Source of the DNA: Escherichia coli
GTDB taxonomy: Bacteria > Pseudomonadota > Gammaproteobacteria > Enterobacterales > Enterobacteriaceae
Length of the DNA stretch: 64,000 nt
Assembly (NCBI RefSeq): GCF_003334785.1
Contig: NZ_QOWV01000001.1
Reading direction: 5' to 3' (one strand)
Numbering within the stretch: the stretch's first letter is position 1; each line of letters begins with the position of its first letter. This document shows, piece by piece, positions 1-56,135 of this stretch. Below the pieces are notes generated by a model that saw only the letters and a list, made by a program, of their open reading frames with translations, was not told the origin of the DNA and ran no database searches. Both the position numbers and the translations under genes were made by a program.

Positions 1-76
1 GGGTCGTTAGCTCAGTTGGTAGAGCAGTTGACTTTTAATCAATTGGTCGCAGGTTCGAATCCTGCACGACCCACCA
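1..76 (+). tRNA. lysZ: tRNA-Lys (anticodon UUU)
   Basis: 76-nt sequence with cloverleaf-compatible arms, anticodon loop cttttaa and 3' CCA; first of two identical copies. Which lys locus it is comes from the remembered K-12 order. Confidence 0.9.
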
Positions 77-208
77 ATTTAAAGGTGGTTACTGGTAGAG
101 AACGTGAAGGATAACGTTGCGTTAGCAACGGCCCGAAGGGCGAGACGAAGTCGAGTCATCCTGCACGACCCACCATCCTGAATGATTAAGGCAGCATAAT
201 CCCGCAAG

Positions 209-284
209 GGGTCGTTAGCTCAGTTGGTAGAGCAGTTGACTTTTAATCAATTGGTCGCAGGTTCGAATCCTGCACGACCCACCA
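209..284 (+). tRNA. lysQ: tRNA-Lys (anticodon UUU)
   Basis: Exact duplicate of 1-76, located immediately upstream of nadA. Confidence 0.9.
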
Positions 285-24249: not shown

Positions 24250-24465
<216 letters not shown>

Positions 24466-34060: not shown

Positions 34061-34159
34061 GCCTGATGCGCTACGCTTATCAGGCCTACATTTTCTCCGC
34101 AATATATTGAATTTGCGCGGTTTGTAGGCCGGATAAGGCGTTCACGCCGCATCCGGCAT
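34061..34159. repeat. Composite REP-spacer-REP element (BIME/RIP-like)
   Basis: gcctgatgcgctacgcttatcaggcc ... caatatattgaatttgc ... gtaggccggataaggcg..gccgcatccggc. Confidence 0.8.
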
Positions 34160-35344: not shown

Positions 35345-35389
35345 AAAGTGTGGATGGTAAAAATCTCATTTACACGCTAGTATCGGCAT

Positions 35390-35519
35390 AACCACTAAAC
35401 ACTCTAGCCTCTGCACCTGGGTCAACTGATACGGTGCTTTGGCCGTGACAATGCTCGTAAAGATTGCCACCAGGGCGAAGGAAGAAATGACTTCGCCTCC
35501 CGTATCTGGAAAGGTGTAC
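35390..35519 (+). ncRNA. Probable molybdenum cofactor (Moco) riboswitch leader
   Basis: Long structured 5' leader before moaA whose end overlaps the RBS; identified from the known moaA leader architecture, boundaries approximate. Confidence 0.5.
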
Positions 35520-36509
35520 ATGGCTTCACAACTGACTGATGCATTTGCGCGTAAGTTTTACTACTTGCGCCTGTCGATTACCGATGTGTGTAACTTTCGT
35601 TGCACCTACTGCCTGCCGGATGGCTACAAACCGAGCGGCGTCACCAATAAAGGCTTTCTTACCGTCGATGAAATTCGCCGGGTTACGCGCGCCTTCGCCA
35701 GTCTGGGCACCGAAAAAGTGCGCCTGACAGGAGGAGAGCCGTCTTTACGCCGCGACTTTACCGATATCATCGCCGCTGTGCGGGAAAACGACGCTATCCG
35801 CCAGATTGCGGTCACAACCAATGGTTACCGTCTGGAACGCGATGTGGCGAGCTGGCGCGATGCGGGACTTACTGGCATTAACGTCAGTGTCGACAGTCTG
35901 GACGCCCGCCAGTTTCACGCTATTACCGGGCAGGATAAATTCAACCAGGTCATGGCAGGGATTGATGCTGCATTTGAGGCCGGTTTTGAGAAGGTCAAAG
36001 TCAATACCGTGCTGATGCGTGATGTTAATCATCACCAGCTCGACACCTTTCTGAACTGGATCCAGCATCGCCCTATCCAGCTGCGTTTCATCGAACTGAT
36101 GGAAACGGGCGAGGGCAGCGAGCTCTTCCGTAAGCATCACATCTCTGGTCAGGTTCTGCGTGACGAGCTACTGCGTCGCGGCTGGATCCACCAATTACGT
36201 CAACGCAGCGACGGTCCCGCGCAAGTCTTTTGCCATCCAGATTACGCCGGAGAGATTGGCCTTATCATGCCGTATGAAAAAGACTTCTGCGCCACTTGCA
36301 ACCGCCTGCGCGTTTCCTCCATTGGTAAACTCCATCTCTGCCTGTTTGGTGAAGGCGGCGTTAACCTGCGCGATCTGCTGGAAGACGATACCCAGCAACA
36401 GGCGCTGGAAGCGCGTATTTCAGCGGCGCTGCGGGAGAAGAAACAGACCCATTTCCTGCATCAAAACAACACCGGTATTACGCAAAACTTATCGTACATT
36501 GGCGGCTAA
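35520..36509 (+). CDS. moaA: GTP 3',8-cyclase (radical SAM)
   Basis: Start placed at [17 protein letters not shown]; CNFRCTYC motif; 329 aa. Confidence 0.93.
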
Positions 36510-39268: not shown

Positions 39269-39982
39269 ATGGAATCATACTCGCAAAACAGCAATAAATT
39301 AGATTTTCAGCACGAGGCCAGGATATTAAACGGTATATGGCTCATTACCGCTTTAGGTTTGGTGGCAACCGCAGGACTAGCCTGGGGAGCTAAGTATCTC
39401 GAAATTACGGCAACCAAATATGATTCACCACCAATGTATGTCGCCATAGGGTTATTATTACTTTGTATGTATGGCTTAAGTAAGGATATCAACAAGATAA
39501 ATGCCGCCATCGCGGGCGTAATATATCTGTTTTTACTCTCTTTGGTGGCGATTGTCGTTGCAAGTTTAGTTCCTGTATATGCCATTATCATCGTGTTCAG
39601 CACTGCGGGCGCGATGTTTTTAATCAGTATGCTGGCCGGTTTATTATTTAATGTTGATCCTGGTTCTCACCGTTTTATCATTATGATGACGTTGACAGGG
39701 TTGGCCCTGGTAATCATCGTGAATGCGGCATTAATGAGTGAACGGCCCATTTGGGTAATAAGTTGCTTAATGATTGTGTTATGGTCAGGCATTATCTCGC
39801 ATGGACGAAATAAGCTCCTTGAATTGGCGGGGAAATGCCATAGTGAAGAGTTGTGGAGTCCGGTTCGTTGCGCTTTTACAGGTGCATTAACACTCTATTA
39901 CTATTTTATCGGCTTCTTTGGGATACTTGCCGCGATAGCTATAACGCTTGTCTGGCAAAGGCATACGCGTTTTTTTCATTAG
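39269..39982 (+). CDS. ybhM: BI-1-like inner membrane protein
   Basis: 237-aa polytopic membrane ORF; AT-rich by eye. Confidence 0.8.
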   Translation: MESYSQNSNKLDFQHEARILNGIWLITALGLVATAGLAWGAKYLEITATKYDSPPMYVAIGLLLLCMYGLSKDINKINAAIAGVIYLFLLSLVAIVVASLVPVYAIIIVFSTAGAMFLISMLAGLLFNVDPGSHRFIIMMTLTGLALVIIVNAALMSERPIWVISCLMIVLWSGIISHGRNKLLELAGKCHSEELWSPVRCAFTGALTLYYYFIGFFGILAAIAITLVWQRHTRFFH

Positions 39983-40017
39983 CCGTAAATGCACATACTA
40001 AAGAACTTAACTAAACT

Positions 40018-40974
40018 TCACATCGCCGCTTCATTTTTCGCCCGTAGCTTCTTCGCCTGGCTTTCCAGCAACAGGTAACAGATCAGCGCCAGCAGCAGTG
40101 GGATAAAGTAATACAGCACACGGTAAGCGAGTAGGGCGGCGATAATTGTACCTTTGGAGGTATGCTCCCCAGCCAGTAGTGCGATAAACACCGCTTCCAG
40201 CACACCGATCCCCGCCGGAATATGCACGATGACGCCAGCAATACTACTAACCAGTAACACGCCCAGTACAAAGAAATAGTTCACGCTTTGACCAAGTAAC
40301 AGCCAGATAATCGCCCCCATTACCATCCAGTTAACGCTGGAAATCAGCATCTGAGCGAGGGCGAATTTCCATGAAGGCAGCACCAGCTTTTGCCCTTTGA
40401 TGGTCATATGGCGGTGCTTCGCGAAAGCGCAAAACCACAAATAAACCGCGATAATCATCAGTAAGCCAATGCCGAGAATACGCAGCGTAGTTTGATCGAC
40501 ATACCAGTGATCCGGCAACTCCACCACGCCTGCGGTAAAGATAATCCCTGCCAGTAAAATGTAGCCCAGCCAGTTGGTGGTAATACTGAGCGAGAAAATC
40601 CGCGTAATAGTGCTACCGGGCAACCCCAGACGAGAGTACAAACGATAGCGCATACCAATGCCGCCGACCCAGGTACTGAGCGTCAGGTTGAAGGCGTAGC
40701 AGATAAACGACACCAGCATCACCTGGCGCTTCGCCAGTTTGTGACCGCAGTAAAAGCGGGCGAGCAGGTCATAGCAGCCGTAAATCAGATAGCTGACGAC
40801 CACCAGCCCGACCGCACTAAGCAGCGCAACGCGATTGTAGTCGCGGATGACCTTCCAGACCTCTTCCCAGTCCACTTTTTTGGCGTAGACCACCAGCAAC
40901 ACAATCACCGCGATAAAAAACAGCCAGGTGAGGATCTTCTTTGCTAAGCGCCAGCGCGGGTGTGATTTACTCAT
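40018..40974 (-). CDS. ybhN: Inner membrane protein, UPF0104 / lysyl-PG-synthase-like C-terminal domain family
   Basis: 318-aa membrane ORF; its start overlaps the clsB stop (TGATG). Confidence 0.85.
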   Translation of the reverse strand: MSKSHPRWRLAKKILTWLFFIAVIVLLVVYAKKVDWEEVWKVIRDYNRVALLSAVGLVVVSYLIYGCYDLLARFYCGHKLAKRQVMLVSFICYAFNLTLSTWVGGIGMRYRLYSRLGLPGSTITRIFSLSITTNWLGYILLAGIIFTAGVVELPDHWYVDQTTLRILGIGLLMIIAVYLWFCAFAKHRHMTIKGQKLVLPSWKFALAQMLISSVNWMVMGAIIWLLLGQSVNYFFVLGVLLVSSIAGVIVHIPAGIGVLEAVFIALLAGEHTSKGTIIAALLAYRVLYYFIPLLLALICYLLLESQAKKLRAKNEAAM

Positions 40975-42215
40975 CAGGGTTTTACCCCCGTGTTTTCAGT
41001 TTCTACCCGATCCTGCGTTTCCATTGTCGGTTGTGCGGGCGGATCAACCTGCGCCAGACGTGGCGTGTGTGCCGGAAGCCAGCCAACCAGCGCCGGGAAG
41101 TGGCGTAAAAAGTGGAACGCCAGCACGCTTTTGGTCAGGTTCCACCAGGTGCGTTTGGGCAGCATGGTTTCATCCACCTGCTGACAATCTGCGGCAATAA
41201 TGCCGTTCAGATTATCGCGCAGCGTCTGGTTAAAATGACGATCGTGGATGATGACATTTGCTTCGAGATTCAGTGACAAACTGAGCGGATCGAGATTACT
41301 GGACCCTACTGTCGCCCAGTGATCGTCCATCAATGCCACTTTGCCGTGGAGCGGGCGGCGGCGGTACTCAAAAACCTGAACGCCGCCTTTAACCAGATAG
41401 TTATACAGCAAGCGCGCACCGACTCTGACAATCGGCATATCCGGTTCGCCCTGAATGATCAGTTTGATCCGCACCCCGCGCCGTGCCGCTTTACGCAAGG
41501 CGTGTAAAAATCGATAGCCGGGGAAGAAGTAGGCGTTGGCGATAATCACTTCCCGCCGCGCCTGAGTGAGCATTTTCAAATAATGGCGTTCAATATCATC
41601 GCGATGTTCTTCGTTATCGCGCCAGACCAGCAATACCTGCGCTTCTCCCGGCTGGCGGTTCTCTTCCGCTTTGTGATGACGTCGCCACCAGCGTCGTGCC
41701 GCGCTCTGTCCAGGCAGGTTTTCCAGCTCAAACTGGAGAATATCTTCGACAATCGGCCCTTCAAGGCGTACCGCGTAATCCTGTTTAGCCTCTGGACCGT
41801 AGCTGGACATATGCTCGGCGGAGTAATTCAGCCCGCCAATAAAGGCTATACGCGCGTCGATCACCACAATTTTGCGATGCATCCGGCGAAACACATTGGT
41901 GCGCATACCAAAAAGGCGAGGGCGGGGATCGTAGTAGCGGAACACTACGCCAGCTGCCGTCAGTTCATTGACAAACTCATCGCTGAGATCCGGCGAACCG
42001 TAGCCATCCAGCAAGACTTCCGCTTTAACCCCGCGTTGCGCTGCTGCCAGTAGTGCCGCATGCAGTTGTTTGCCGACGTCATCCTCAAACCAGATAAACG
42101 TTTCAAGAATGATGCGTTCTTGTGCCTCGCCAATCGCCTTAAACACCGCGGGATAATATTGCTCGCCGTTTTCCAGCAACTGGATCTTATTGCCTTCGCG
42201 CCAGCTACATTTCAT
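40974..42215 (-). CDS. clsB: Cardiolipin synthase B (PLD superfamily)
   Basis: 413-aa ORF with two HxK(x4)D-type motifs ([16 protein letters not shown]). Confidence 0.9.
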
Positions 42216-42973
42216 AAATGAATCTCCGCACTTAAAGGGGCATGATCAGAAAGGTGTCGCCATGTCCGCAGCGGCAACGCGGTTGGCGCGCTGGCGCTGG
42301 CATTTTTGACGTAGATCCTGTCCAGTCGTAGTAGAGGAAATTGCACCGGAAACGTGCGCGCCGGGCGTCCGTGGGCGCGGGTAAAAATCTCATCCAGTCC
42401 GGCCTGCACTTTTAACGGATGATTAGCTTTTTGCCGCCAGTCATTGAAATCACCCGCCACCAATACCGGTTCGCCGTCCGGTAGCTCATTCACCCATTCG
42501 GCGAGCATCGCAAGCTGCGCCTGACGGTGCGCCTCACGCAGGCCCAGATGTACGCACATCACATGAATCGCTTTTCCGGTCATCGGCGGCACAATGCGGC
42601 AGTAGAGCACGCCGCGCTTTTCCGCACCATCGACCGAAACATCGCGATTCTCATAATGTTCAATGGGATAACGCGACAGTACGGCGTTGCCGTGATGCCC
42701 TTCCGGGTATACGGCATTGCGACCGTAGGCAAAATCGCTCCACATAGTGTCGGCGAGAAACTCGTAGTGCGAGGTATCGGGCCAGTTTTCCACATGCAGC
42801 GGATGAACTTCGTGCGCGCCCATCACTTCCTGCAGGCAAACAATATCGGCGCTGACGGTACGCACGGCGTCGCGAAGTTCCGGCAAAATGAAGCGTCGGT
42901 TAAACGCGGTAAAGCCTTTGTGAATATTGATGGTGAGCACCTTGAACGAAAATTGTTGTGTTTGATCGGGCAT
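42212..42973 (-). CDS. ybhP: Endonuclease/exonuclease/phosphatase-family protein
   Basis: 253-aa ORF; its stop overlaps the clsB start (ATGA). Confidence 0.85.
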
Positions 42974-43105
42974 AATTTTCCTGTCTTTGCCTCTTATCTC
43001 ATTGAAATAGTGTAGTCGGCGTCACAAAAAGGTGCGGTCTTACGGAATTTTCCGTAAAGTTCGGTACTCTGAGTAAGTAGAGATAAATTCTTCAGGAGAG
43101 AAGCC

Positions 43106-43516
43106 ATGAAGTGGCAACAACGTGTTCGTGTCGCAACGGGTCTAAGTTGCTGGCAGATTATGTTGCATTTACTGGTAGTGGCGCTGCTGGTGGTGGGCTG
43201 GATGAGTAAGACTCTGGTTCACGTCGGCGTGGGATTATGCGCACTGTATTGTGTCACGGTAGTGATGATGCTGGTGTTTCAGCGCCACCCCGAGCAACGC
43301 TGGCGTGAGGTGGCAGACGTGCTGGAAGAGCTGACCACGACCTGGTATTTTGGCGCAGCGCTGATTGTGCTGTGGCTGTTGTCCCGCGTTCTGGAAAACA
43401 ACTTTTTGCTGGCAATTGCAGGGCTGGCAATCCTTGCCGGCCCGGCGGTAGTGTCTTTGCTGGCGAAAGATAAGAAGTTACATCACCTTACGTCTAAACA
43501 TCGCGTACGCCGCTGA
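43106..43516 (+). CDS. ybhQ: Inner membrane protein
   Basis: 136-aa ORF with four predicted TM segments. Confidence 0.8.
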
Positions 43517-44584
43517 CCCTGTCGTGGCCGTTATCACCAGTAGCGGCCACAAACTATTCCACACAATATCCAGACTCGCATCCTTCAAATAAATCTGCTT
43601 GGTAATGTCCGTAAAGTGGCGAATAGGGTTAATCCACGTCAGGTTTTGCAGCCATACCGGCATGTTTTCCACCGGAGAAACGTAACCGGAAAGGAGAATG
43701 GCGGGCATCATAAAGACAAACACGCCGATAAACGCCTGCTGTTGTGTTGAACAGAGTGATGAAATCAACAGACCGAATCCCACCAGCGATAAACCATAAA
43801 TCACCATCGTAAAGTAGAACAGCGCCAGCGATCCGGCGAAGGGGATTTGATACGCCCAGATACCAATCGCCAGCACAATGGTGGCCTGGAAGGTGGCGAC
43901 AATTAACGCCGGTACGGCTTTGCCGATGAAGATCTGCCAGGTGGTGAGCGGCGAAACCAGTAGCTGATCGAGCGTACCTTGTTCACGTTCGCGGGCGACG
44001 GAAAGTGAAGTGACGATCATTACGCCGATAGTGGTGATCATGGCGATCAGTGACGGCACCACAAACCATTTGTAGTCGAGATTCGGGTTATACCAGTTGC
44101 GTACCACCAGCTCGCTGTTGTTAGGTTTCGGTTTTCCTTCCAGCAGCTCCTGCTGATAATTTTTGACGATCTGTTGCAGGTAGTTGGCGGCAATTTGCGC
44201 ACTGTTGGAGTTACGCCCGTCGAGGATCAACTGCAAAGGCGCGGTCTGGAAGGTATCCAGTTTGCGCGAGAAGTCAGCCGGGAAACGCACCAGTAGTAAC
44301 GCCTTTTGTGTGTCGATGGTTGGGCGGATCTCCTGTGGGCTTTTCAGCAGCAGCACATGAGTAAAGGCGCTGGCGCGGGCAAAACGTTGGGTCAGCTCCA
44401 CCGAATGCTCGCCGTTATCTTCATCGTAGATGGCGATGGTGGCGTTAGTCACTTCCAGCGTGGCGGCGAACGGGAACAGGATCACCTGAATTAGCACGGG
44501 TAAAATCAGAATCGCGCGGGTTTGCGGTTCGCGCAGCAACGACTGCAACTCTTTGCGGATTAACGTCCATAAGCGATGAAACAT
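43478..44584 (-). CDS. ybhR: ABC-2-type transporter permease
   Basis: 368-aa membrane ORF. Confidence 0.88.
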
Positions 44585-50764: not shown

Positions 50765-50864
<100 letters not shown>

Positions 50865-56060: not shown

Positions 56061-56135
56061 GTAGGCCTGATAAGACGCGGTAGCGTCGCATCAGGCATCT
56101 GTTGCCGGATGCGGCGTAAACGCCTTATCCGTCCT
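56061..56135. repeat. REP palindromes
   Basis: gtaggcctgataagacgcg...gcatcaggc and gccggatgcggcgtaaacgccttatccg. Confidence 0.65.

Follow-up and report, generated by a model that had tools for sequence, protein, structure and literature searches.

What does cardiolipin synthase B (ClsB) do for the cell, and what is contributed by the two genes encoded together with it? ClsB is dispensable for cardiolipin, yet Salmonella needs it to make its immunostimulatory trehalose phospholipids, for which "unknown additional requirements" were noted (PMC6446866). The genes ybhP, clsB and ybhN lie side by side in the stretch of Escherichia coli DNA that we analysed (64,000 nt of contig NZ_QOWV01000001.1, from here on the window). 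The locus is textbook-annotated and the window itself holds no discovery; its interest lies in the physiological job of ClsB and in the flipping of newly made phospholipids at the inner membrane.

The locus has the sequence features of a translationally coupled operon: genes on the same strand, overlapping stop and start codons and internal Shine-Dalgarno-like sequences. The latter are GGAG at 42227-42224, inside ybhP and 8 nt before the clsB ATG, and GGGGG at 40989-40985, inside clsB and 10 nt before the ybhN ATG. A preliminary description of the window had placed three minus-strand genes with ATGA and TGATG overlaps here, and the ORF listing and the sequence both agree with it (Table 1). The overlapping codons suggest translational coupling of the three genes and nothing beyond that. 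The stoichiometric co-expression claimed in the same description was overstated, since in published RNA-seq data induction falls along ybhP, clsB and ybhN (17.6-, 12.3- and 4.4-fold, PMC5105897). Both overlap types are ordinary, the commonest junctions of bacterial operons. Within 43 kb around the locus, 8 of the 13 tightly spaced co-directional gene pairs overlap, or 6 of 11 when the pairs of this operon are left out. Over 3.25 kb the sequence shows no difference from E. coli K-12 MG1655 (100% identity), where the genes are annotated as ybhP, clsB and ybhN. Of 5,426 complete E. coli genomes, 5,423 carry this stretch with a coverage of ≥80%. An Rfam gathering scan of the whole window placed no RNA family within 40018-43105.

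Table 1. Coordinates of the ybhP-clsB-ybhN locus in the window.
Feature	Position	Strand	Description
ybhP	42212..42973	minus	253 aa, ATG start, TGA stop; first operon gene; soluble EEP-family metal-dependent phosphoesterase (predicted)
clsB	40974..42215	minus	413 aa, ATG start, TGA stop; PLD-superfamily phosphatidyltransferase (cardiolipin synthase B), without transmembrane helix
ybhN (proposed name pplT)	40018..40974	minus	318 aa, ATG start, TGA stop; polytopic inner-membrane protein, MprF TMD1 homologue
ATGA junction, ybhP stop/clsB start	42212..42215	minus	4-nt overlap (ORF listing and sequence)
TGATG junction, clsB stop/ybhN start	40972..40976	minus	1-nt overlap (ORF listing and sequence)
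ClsB HKD motif 1, HRKIVVID, residues 113-120	41856..41879	minus	regex match; coordinates counted from start 42215
ClsB HKD motif 2, HGKVALMD, residues 290-297	41325..41348	minus	regex match
Conserved ybhQ-ybhP intergenic block, CCGCACC..TTTGTGAC..GACTACACT	43009..43037	minus	putative operon promoter

In other genera the 4-nt ybhP/clsB overlap is conserved, not universal. It occurs in Pantoea, and no fewer than 39 of the 72 orthologous loci keep it, counting those whose start 4 nt before the ybhP stop is the candidate nearest to residue 1 in the ClsB alignment. A count of about 58 of the 72 loci with a start codon exactly 4 nt before the ybhP stop was discounted, because any TGA stop after A, G or T makes such a start codon. 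The 1-nt clsB/ybhN overlap was retained in Pantoea, Pluralibacter and one Lautropia locus; the other loci mostly have a 4-nt or 14-nt overlap or a short gap.

The conserved block upstream of ybhP is the sole well-conserved stretch between the ybhQ-ybhP intergenic regions of E. coli and Pantoea. Within it, some 36 nt before the ybhP start codon, lies a -10 element of the sigma-S type (C + TACACT, 43015-43009), and the sequence of the block also occurs in a Salmonella primer named 'clsB operon 5' promoter' (PMC9241728). We propose it as the operon promoter because of this conservation and the literature, and not because of the sigma-70 consensus: scans of 39800-43300 for sigma-70 promoters and intrinsic terminators returned no more than expected from shuffled sequence, with no minus-strand promoter ahead of ybhP. 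RpoS dependence of ybhPO was reported as 251-fold and 7-fold (PMC2907692). The operon is co-induced with otsBA and treF (PMC10100675), and the joint induction of all three genes supports their co-transcription (PMC5105897, PMC10100675).

The gene identities given in the preliminary description, an EEP-family phosphoesterase, a PLD-type cardiolipin synthase and a polytopic membrane protein, were borne out. ClsB matches the NCBIfam equivalog NF008427 with 751.2 bits against a cutoff of 281, over residues 1-408 of 413. Both HxKxxxxD catalytic motifs are present, and H290, the residue whose mutation into alanine inactivated Salmonella ClsB (PMC9241728), lies in the second one. Unlike ClsA with its N-terminus, ClsB has no transmembrane helix (no 19-residue window with a Kyte-Doolittle value of 1.6 or more), and it has been described as a protein without such a helix that acts at the cytoplasmic face (PMC11698083, PMC12846801). 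No solved structure in the PDB was related to ClsB by sequence at E≤0.001. In the literature, ClsB uses PG as an acceptor to give cardiolipin and glycerol to give PG; with trehalose it gives phosphatidyltrehalose (PT) and diphosphatidyltrehalose (diPT) in Salmonella and in some E. coli K-12 strains (PMC6446866, PMC9241728, PMC12846801). S. Typhimurium 14028s and E. coli BW25113 are producers of PT and diPT.

YbhN matches Pfam PF03706 (LPG_synthase_TM) with an E-value of 4.6e-15 over residues 21-295. It has multiple hydrophobic segments and an excess of basic residues (30 K+R vs 12 acidic residues). It aligns to positions 3-301 of the 841 positions of the NCBIfam bifunc_MprF profile, and phmmer aligned it to residues 40-342 of P. 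aeruginosa MprF (E 3.4e-22). We found no Pfam synthase-domain match in its 318 aa, and all matches end by residue ~342 of MprF or profile position 301. The relation to the C-terminal synthase domain of MprF that had been suggested for YbhN is therefore wrong, and the similarity is to the N-terminal flippase/scramblase part. YbhN had also been said to have no assigned role, like YbhP. This holds for YbhP but not for YbhN, which was renamed PplT and proposed as a phospholipid translocator with a two-hybrid contact to ClsB (2022 preprint, bioRxiv 10.1101/2022.03.11.483950).

In its logic the locus resembles MprF, where a headgroup-modifying enzyme at the cytoplasmic face is coupled to a PF03706 membrane module that sends the product to the outer leaflet. 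However, the enzyme at ybhP-clsB-ybhN is a PLD transphosphatidylase on a separate polypeptide, while that of MprF is a tRNA-dependent aminoacyl transferase; neither TMD2 nor the C-terminal synthase domain is present in YbhN, and the EEP protein has no MprF counterpart. In vitro, full-length MprF of P. aeruginosa scrambles lipids passively and promiscuously, very large headgroups included, and its proposed scrambling groove lies between TMD1 and TMD2 (PMC11980842). YbhN is the counterpart of TMD1 only, which counts against scrambling of ClsB products by YbhN.

YbhP matches the EEP family (PF03372, E 3e-23) over the full length of the profile, and its predicted model has the four-layer alpha/beta sandwich of the superfamily. 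The seven metal-binding and catalytic residues of EEP enzymes (N, E, D, N, D, D-H) are all invariant in an alignment of 10 sequences. Across 86 sequences, N16 and D175 never vary, and each of E49, N177, D218, D243 and H244 is retained in ≥90%. Judged by these residues, YbhP is a predicted catalytically intact EEP phosphoesterase of the Mg2+ type. Its model, which has high confidence, is nearest to phosphodiesterase-type EEPs (TDP2, neutral sphingomyelinases), with AP endonucleases and DNase I further away. The fold comparison singles out no lipid substrate, as TDP2, nocturnin and CCR4-type enzymes score about the same as the sphingomyelinases. The top four structural matches are bacterial EEPs without assigned function, and the identity to neutral sphingomyelinases and TDP2 is just 18-21%.

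Loss of the three-gene linkage in other genera had been named beforehand as evidence against a common module. Our first search for YbhP homologues gave only matches with at least 70% identity, of which those named to organism were all Enterobacterales, and was useless for deep synteny. We gathered 80 loci by a genome scan with YbhP alignment (52-75% identity), which are not phylogenetically independent samples. They span Pseudomonas, Stutzerimonas, Polaromonas, Ramlibacter, Variovorax, Rhizobacter, Mitsuaria, Xylophilus, Lautropia, Alcaligenaceae, Luteimonas, Pantoea and Pluralibacter. A ClsB-type gene lies directly 3' of ybhP on the same strand in 73 of the 80 loci, and in 68 it is followed by a YbhN-type gene. 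The order ybhP, clsB, ybhN is preserved across Gamma- and Betaproteobacteria. The flanking ybhQ and ybhL were retained only in Enterobacterales, and with their adjacency so confined YbhQ and YbhL/YbhM were rejected as additional members of the module.

More distant contexts were collected by tblastn against plasmids and chromids, by the genome scan and from representatives of 50% clusters. Among 16 informative contexts of YbhP relatives with 28-50% identity, 14 have a PLD gene beside the EEP gene or fused to it. In Burkholderia, Mycetohabitans and Cupriavidus we observed PLD::VTT(DedA) fusions followed by the EEP gene, and EEP::PLD fusions in a single polypeptide were found in at least four divergent protein clusters. 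A singleton metagenomic YbhP-ClsB fusion with a scrambled linker (P0033) was set aside as a probable indel or assembly artefact. Against the association, stand-alone YbhP homologues occur in Legionella, at three Burkholderiales loci and, as one distant homologue, on a short metagenome contig.

The membrane partner in these distant contexts is PplT in three and DedA/VTT in six. Since both families were linked to lipid scrambling in the literature, the replacement of one by the other points to lipid flipping as the role of this partner. VTT proteins, related to the DedA/VTT scramblases VMP1/TMEM41B and B. subtilis PetA (PMC11980842), fill the YbhN slot in the three genera named above and in several metagenomic contigs, where they are fused to the PLD protein or adjoin the EEP gene. 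The E. coli locus differs in that it uses a PF03706 protein, and the VTT-paired PLDs are only ~25-28% identical to ClsB. A literature search for the EEP/PLD/DedA triad and for PA2154-PA2156 returned nothing relevant.

The gene glgX has ybhP-clsB-ybhN downstream of it in Pseudomonas kuykendallii, at three Stutzerimonas loci and in P. oligotrophica. P. kuykendallii and the three Stutzerimonas loci have glgB and treS beyond the operon on the opposite strand, and P. kuykendallii has treY on the upstream side of glgX. A YbhP gene on its own fills the space from glgX to glgB-treS in P. japonica, P. entomophila and two more loci; where these loci are long enough to show it, treY lies upstream and glgE further on. 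In B. multivorans the PLD::VTT-EEP pair is followed by glgE-treS. The P. aeruginosa gene PA2155 presumably also lies in a glg/tre cluster; here we observed this context in other Pseudomonas and Stutzerimonas species.

The trehalose-cluster neighbourhood fits the requirement for ClsB in the synthesis of trehalose phospholipids (PMC6446866), the ClsB-dependent formation of PT and the co-induction with otsBA and treF. Since PT and diPT were undetected in P. aeruginosa, Bordetella and Shigella although these have clsB orthologues (PMC6446866), the trehalose reading is weaker outside Salmonella and E. coli. The conserved gene order, the fusions and the embedding in trehalose clusters make YbhP and YbhN obvious candidates for the missing requirements of PT synthesis. 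The three activities tend to be encoded side by side, at times in fused form, and this makes the role of YbhP directly testable.

The operon as such is already known. It is the "clsB operon" of Salmonella (2022), and the contact of YbhN, as PplT, with ClsB comes from a 2022 preprint; the E. coli/Salmonella 'clsB operon' (RefSeq; PMC9241728; bioRxiv 10.1101/2022.03.11.483950) is the same locus, with no sequence difference. Published linkage covers only genera of Enterobacteriaceae (Escherichia, Shigella, Klebsiella and Pantoea). YbhP, the replacement by DedA, the fusions and the trehalose-cluster context are absent from these accounts and come from the present comparison.

Putting the gene identities, junctions, synteny, fusions and neighbourhood from our analysis together with the ClsB products, RpoS dependence and two-hybrid contact taken from papers, we lean towards a three-gene operon, induced by stress and in stationary phase, that makes and distributes minor lipids formed by phosphatidyl transfer. 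Induction would depend on RpoS and ppGpp, as the literature indicates. ClsB would act as a soluble, membrane-associated PLD-type transphosphatidylase at the cytoplasmic face, transferring the phosphatidyl group from PE or PG to an alcohol acceptor. YbhN/PplT would most likely equilibrate the bulky-headgroup product across the inner membrane, giving this lipid access to the periplasmic leaflet and the outer membrane. As for YbhP, a phosphodiesterase or phosphatase is most likely, with the phospho-headgroup of the ClsB substrate or product as its target, either in phospholipase-C-like turnover or in headgroup trimming. The lipid remodelling and translocation module put forward in the preliminary description gains support as a functional linkage from the synteny in 68 of 80 loci and from the PLD::DedA and EEP::PLD fusions, while scrambling of ClsB products by YbhN and a lipid substrate of YbhP are what we infer. 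A broader version is only tentative. It would make an EEP phosphoesterase, a PLD phosphatidyltransferase and a scramblase (PplT or DedA) a widespread unrecognised pathway of Proteobacteria that makes, trims or turns over and exports a non-canonical glyco- or phospho-lipid, possibly phosphatidyltrehalose in enterics and some pseudomonads. In this pathway YbhP would carry out the enzymatic step that is missing, and the Mincle-activating lipid would have YbhN as its dedicated exporter.

Alternatively, the genes could be co-located without functional dependence, sharing only a stress promoter, with ClsB as a redundant cardiolipin synthase, YbhN as a general scramblase of bulk phospholipids and YbhP as an unrelated hydrolase. 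We consider this unlikely, although several published results are in its favour. Plasmid-borne clsB alone restored PT and diPT in a Salmonella clsB mutant (PMC6446866). This means that ClsB can function without over-expressed partners; chromosomal ybhP, and perhaps ybhN, remained in that strain. PplT also has two-hybrid contacts with PgpA/B/C, suggestive of a general role, and deletion of pplT/ybhN in E. coli CFT073 left the phospholipid pattern on TLC unaltered, with cardiolipin and minor lipids below detection, and caused a mild growth defect (bioRxiv 10.1101/2022.03.11.483950). The absence of a lipid effect in deletions, named earlier as evidence against the module, has in this way been observed in part, for ybhN and for the lipids within detection. 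Overlapping junctions are, moreover, common in any operon. However, two proteobacterial classes share the gene order with varying flanks, and without a common pathway it would be hard to account for the fusions and for partners that pair up again and again at 28-50% identity.

YbhP could also be an activator or partner of ClsB instead of a pathway enzyme, with YbhN mainly anchoring the soluble ClsB at the membrane. The model for this is clsC-ymdB, which likewise encodes a stationary-phase-induced PLD-type Cls paralogue together with an accessory soluble protein of a hydrolase fold. Tan et al. are said to have found in 2012 that YmdB is needed for full ClsC activity; ClsB would depend on YbhP by analogy. 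The accessory fold differs (a macrodomain vs EEP), and clsC-ymdB has no gene for a membrane translocator. Each E. coli cls gene lies in a small operon with an accessory gene, and clsA-yciU and the 'clsB operon' have been used as units (PMC9241728). The missing transmembrane helix of ClsB, its contact with YbhN and the physical proximity implied by both kinds of fusion also agree with such a partnership. Yet all catalytic residues stay invariant or nearly so even in relatives whose identity to YbhP falls to 28%, a sign of selection for catalysis, and a YbhP paralogue persists in the trehalose/glycogen cluster with no neighbouring ClsB. We therefore regard an activator role as improbable and prefer YbhP as an enzyme of the ClsB pathway.

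That YbhP is a nucleic-acid enzyme (a 'predicted DNase' in older annotations), linked to clsB by historical accident, is very improbable. In its favour, ExoIII, DNase I and TDP2 all belong to the EEP superfamily, TDP2 ranks high among the structural matches, and the weak sequence matches of YbhP are to exodeoxyribonuclease III, with a marginal ExoIII match as the only result of a PDB sequence search.

The ybhP-clsB-ybhN locus is an already annotated and published E. coli operon with overlapping junctions of an ordinary kind. The coordinates of three minus-strand genes joined by ATGA and TGATG overlaps are borne out exactly by the ORF list and the reverse-strand sequence. At the ybhP/clsB junction (TTT-ATGA-AAT, ATGA at 42215-42212) the clsB ATG (42215-42213) lies over the ybhP TGA (42214-42212). 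At the clsB/ybhN junction (CCC-TGATG-AGT, TGATG at 40976-40972) the ybhN ATG (40974-40972) has one base in common with the clsB TGA (40976-40974). Purine-rich, Shine-Dalgarno-like motifs were found within the preceding coding sequence, GGAG 8 nt 5' of the clsB start and GGGGG 10 nt 5' of the ybhN start. In the 43 kb around the operon, 8 of the 13 co-directional gene pairs spaced by 21 nt or less overlap (besides the two junctions, ybhG(hlyD)/ybhF, ybhF/ybhS, moaC/moaD, bioB/bioF, bioF/bioC and bioC/bioD), so 4-nt and 1-nt overlaps are normal for E. coli operons and unremarkable per se. Judged from sequence, the overlaps suggest translational coupling, not equal protein output. The stoichiometric co-expression claimed in the preliminary description was an over-reading, since the published RNA-seq induction after LolCDE inhibition drops along the operon, from ybhP (17.6/33-fold) through clsB (12.3/24-fold) to ybhN (4.4/9-fold) (PMC5105897).

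Genes of the operon and RNA elements located in the window
Feature	Window position	Strand	Details	Basis
ybhP	42973..42212	minus	253 aa, ATG start, TGA stop	ORF list and sequence
clsB	42215..40974	minus	413 aa, ATG start, TGA stop	ORF list and sequence
ybhN	40974..40018	minus	318 aa, ATG start, TGA stop	ORF list and sequence
Moco riboswitch	35388-35532		upstream of moaA	Rfam gathering score
Two naRNA4 elements	24335-24405, 56064-56134		REP-type	Rfam gathering score
Two ES036 elements	34082-34123, 50786-50828			Rfam gathering score
Two tRNAs and RtT element	1-281		window start	Rfam gathering score

The ClsB protein matched the NCBIfam ClsB equivalog over its full length (751 bits, cutoff 281) and is named cardiolipin synthase ClsB in RefSeq. 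It carries two HKD motifs (residues 113-120 and 290-297) and is without a hydrophobic helix; the H290A mutation inactivates Salmonella ClsB (PMC9241728). YbhN, in RefSeq a lysylphosphatidylglycerol synthase domain-containing protein, matched Pfam PF03706 and positions 3-301 of the 841-position NCBIfam model of bifunctional MprF, and aligned to residues 40-342 of P. aeruginosa MprF (E 3.4e-22). By these matches YbhN is the predicted counterpart of the N-terminal flippase/scramblase membrane module of MprF, and its proposed kinship to the C-terminal synthase domain was wrong. P. aeruginosa MprF is in vitro a passive, promiscuous scramblase that moves very large headgroups, and YbhN was cited as a stand-alone example (PMC11980842).

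A scan with a YbhP alignment, taking one genome per GTDB species, gave 80 loci, with YbhP identities of 52-75%. The sources are Pantoea, Pluralibacter, 33 Pseudomonas, 6 Stutzerimonas, Luteimonas, several unclassified MAGs and many Burkholderiales, including Polaromonas, Ramlibacter, Variovorax, Rhizobacter, Mitsuaria, Xylophilus, Lautropia, Pusillimonas and Alcaligenaceae. By tblastn, 73 loci have a ClsB-type gene (38-78% identity) directly downstream of ybhP in the same orientation (one cut by the contig end), and in 68 a YbhN-type gene (39-79% identity) comes next, two more loci ending too early. Since the ybhQ and ybhL flanks are absent beyond Enterobacterales, the conserved unit is exactly ybhP, clsB and ybhN. 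When junctions were scored at the start codon closest to the aligned position of E. coli residue 1, 39 of 72 loci had a 4-nt overlap of ybhP and clsB. The clsB/ybhN overlap was 4 nt in 23 loci, 1 nt in 4 and of other lengths in 13 more (14 nt in ten, all Pseudomonas), with short gaps in the rest; Pantoea metagenomic contigs have the 4-nt and 1-nt overlaps of E. coli. A 2022 preprint drew the operon for Escherichia, Shigella, Klebsiella and Pantoea and renamed YbhN PplT (bioRxiv 10.1101/2022.03.11.483950). The first interpretation of these genes is partly supported: the synteny in other genera speaks for the proposed lipid head-group remodelling and translocation module, and the points to correct are the MprF domain error and the over-read stoichiometry.

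More distant contexts came from YbhP tblastn searches against plasmid/chromid records and from the gene neighbourhoods of 50%-cluster representatives (the YbhP family comprising 381 representatives at E<=1e-30), and 16 were informative, at 28-50% identity. In 14 of them a phospholipase-D superfamily (PLD) gene adjoins or is fused to the YbhP homologue, which belongs to the endonuclease/exonuclease/phosphatase (EEP, PF03372) family; the two contexts without PLD were Legionella adelaidensis and one short contig. The order is PLD-EEP in Thioclava and EEP-PLD in Hoeflea, both with a 4-nt overlap, while Rhizobium etli p42f and Shinella have PLD, an opposite-strand PF03706 protein (28% identity to YbhN, E 8e-27), then EEP. 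In Burkholderia multivorans (L006 3686-5926), Mycetohabitans and Cupriavidus, EEP immediately follows a gene for a ~710-750-aa polypeptide in which a two-HKD PLD at the N terminus is joined to a VTT/DedA domain at the C terminus (PF09335, E 1.3e-24); RefSeq calls it only 'VTT domain-containing protein'. Single metagenomic contigs showed VTT-EEP (4-nt overlap) with a convergent PLD; VTT, then PLD-EEP; EEP-PLD-PF03706; and an inositol-monophosphatase-family gene before PLD-EEP, with a 4-nt overlap at the PLD start (L096 1947-4753), a further phosphatase joined to the pair.

EEP and PLD also occur as a single 648-aa chain (P0220, L092 3180-5126), 42% identical to YbhP in its N-terminal part and 27% to ClsB in its PLD part (E 3e-36); encoded next to it are a VTT::pyridine-nucleotide-disulfide-oxidoreductase fusion of 710 aa and a PlsC-type acyltransferase. 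Since four more divergent metagenomic clusters (P0271, P0272, P0274, P0284) have the EEP+PLD architecture, the fusion is not an assembly artefact. Such Rosetta-stone fusions, and the repeated re-pairing with different PLD subfamilies, tie EEP and PLD functionally. As predicted membrane partner, PplT (3 contexts) and DedA/VTT (6 contexts) stand in for each other. The two families have each been linked to lipid scrambling, as MprF with its PF03706 module scrambles in vitro and VTT/DedA include known scramblases (PMC11980842), and their interchange is the strongest available argument for lipid movement across the bilayer as the role of YbhN in this operon. Our literature search found no paper describing the EEP/PLD/scramblase triad.

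Trehalose/α-glucan genes lie within 8 kb of 9 of the 80 loci and of one distant locus. P. kuykendallii has treY, a small ORF, glgX, two more ORFs and ybhP-clsB-ybhN in succession, then glgB and treS/pep2 in the opposite orientation (NCBIfam equivalogs). Three Stutzerimonas loci have glgX upstream of the operon and glgB-treS beyond, and P. oligotrophica has glgX upstream. P. japonica (L081 7929-8735) and P. entomophila (L083 8001-8726) have malQ-treY-small ORF-glgX-ybhP, with glgB, treS/pep2 and glgE beyond it on the other strand; shorter loci from one further Pseudomonas and one MAG (L082, L067) share a glgX-ybhP-glgB-treS core. Near ybhP in these last four settings clsB and ybhN were not found; another YbhP of P. 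japonica sits with clsB-ybhN at a separate site (L071), and the trehalose-cluster YbhP of this species is 70-75% identical to those of Stutzerimonas and P. kuykendallii. In the distant B. multivorans locus, a glgE-like gene and treS follow the PLD::VTT-EEP pair within 0.7 kb. The nine loci probably represent only two or three independent lineages. Even so, as these genes take up a single small stretch of a genome of 5-6 Mb, such proximity is unlikely to arise by chance, and it is an independent link of the YbhP family, and via YbhP of the whole module, to trehalose metabolism. The two ORFs separating glgX from ybhP in P. kuykendallii (L021 4940-6720) overlap each other and were not seen in the other loci; the 341-aa one has no NCBIfam hit and the 252-aa one is weakly BshB1-like (LmbE/PIG-L-type deacetylase).

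This neighbourhood matches published work on Salmonella, where ClsB is dispensable for cardiolipin and essential for 6-phosphatidyltrehalose (PT) and 6,6'-diphosphatidyltrehalose (diPT), with the caveat that neither lipid was detected in P. aeruginosa under the study conditions (PMC6446866). Some E. coli K-12 strains make trehalose phospholipids and others do not, though their clsB coding sequences are identical, which the authors ascribed to "unknown additional requirements" or "interacting proteins" (PMC6446866). Our additions are all comparative (synteny breadth, PplT/DedA interchange, fusions, trehalose-cluster context), and they nominate YbhP and YbhN as these "additional requirements" for ClsB-dependent lipids. 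The plasmid pWSK29-ybhP-clsB-ybhN, carrying the "whole clsB operon", restored and over-produced cardiolipin in a Salmonella clsABC triple mutant (PMC9241728).

We lean, with modest confidence, towards a general three-component pathway. ClsB would be drawn to the inner membrane on its cytoplasmic side, perhaps via YbhN, and transfer phosphatidyl groups to available alcohols. Under RpoS/osmotic conditions, with trehalose accumulating, its products would include PT and diPT besides cardiolipin; YbhN would bring these bulky products to the periplasmic leaflet by scrambling, and its partner YbhP would hydrolyse a phosphoester in the same pathway. PplT has ClsB and PgpA/B/C as two-hybrid partners, and an E. 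coli CFT073 pplT mutant had an unchanged TLC phospholipid pattern and a mild temperature-dependent fitness defect (bioRxiv 10.1101/2022.03.11.483950). That the three proteins have separate functions under a shared promoter is, beside the EEP::PLD fusions, unlikely.

No function assigned to YbhP was found in the searchable literature; RefSeq names it an endonuclease/exonuclease/phosphatase family protein. In a structural comparison of its high-confidence model, the four best matches were bacterial EEPs. TDP2 scored 24.8 and human neutral sphingomyelinase SMPD2 24.2; after SMPD2 came nocturnin, CNOT6L, PDE12, ANGEL2 and Streptomyces sphingomyelinase C (21.3), with ExoIII (20.9) and inositol 5-phosphatases (~17) lower. 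Among 86 sequences N16 and D175 never vary, and each of E49, N177, D218, D243 and H244 is kept in at least 90%. Since the canonical EEP catalytic residues are retained down to 28% identity, YbhP is almost certainly an active metal-dependent phosphoesterase, from the phosphodiesterase-like part of the fold family. The substrate cannot be read from the modelled fold. YbhP could turn over PT, diPT or cardiolipin by phospholipase-C-type cleavage to sugar phosphate or diacylglycerol, or could remove phosphate from a phosphorylated headgroup; any one specific reaction is improbable at best. By analogy with YmdB and ClsC, YbhP might instead be a non-catalytic or scaffold activator, and beside the retained catalytic residues we give this a rather slim chance. 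That it is a nuclease, with ExoIII among the lower matches, is highly improbable.

Published data place the operon under RpoS control. RpoS dependence of ybhPO in EDL933 was 251-fold and 7-fold (PMC2907692), the operon is listed as ppGpp-regulated and induced alongside otsBA and treF (PMC10100675), and a sigma-E ChIP peak lies in the Salmonella ybhP/ybhQ intergenic region (PMC4577112). A consensus scan found no sigma-70 promoter 5' of ybhP. When the ybhQ-ybhP intergenic regions of E. coli and Pantoea were aligned, one conserved block stood out, CCGCACC..TTTGTGAC..GACTACACT (window 43037-43009), which ends 3' in C then TACACT, sigma-S -10-like, and is also found in the Salmonella "clsB operon 5' promoter" primer. 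A putative sigma-S promoter here would agree with the RpoS dependence in the literature.

The window as a whole is plain E. coli K-12 chromosomal sequence. By megablast, 39900-43150 is present at 80% coverage or more in 5,423 of 5,426 complete E. coli genomes and 100% identical in K-12 MG1655, C600 and others. The operon is flanked by divergent ybhQ and convergent ybhM; ybhQ (plus strand, 43106-43516) and ybhR (minus strand, 43478-44584) converge with a 39-nt overlap of their 3' ends (43478-43516). Otherwise identical loci are split in two by IS1 in E. coli PSJ-12 (H1, NZ_AP027622.1) and by the IS5-like ISKpn26 in TOE17 (H2, NZ_CP069093.1). In two enterobacterial metagenome products YbhP continues past its stop, into ClsB sequence in P0033 (389 aa, 2.4-kb ENA contig) and into an out-of-frame tail in P0002 (315 aa); an indel at the ATGA junction or an assembly error is the probable cause of both. 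Several PLSDB E. coli 'plasmids' of 0.7-4.9 Mb (H13-H19) bear the chromosomal ybhP-clsB locus and look like mislabelled chromosomes or chromosome fragments.
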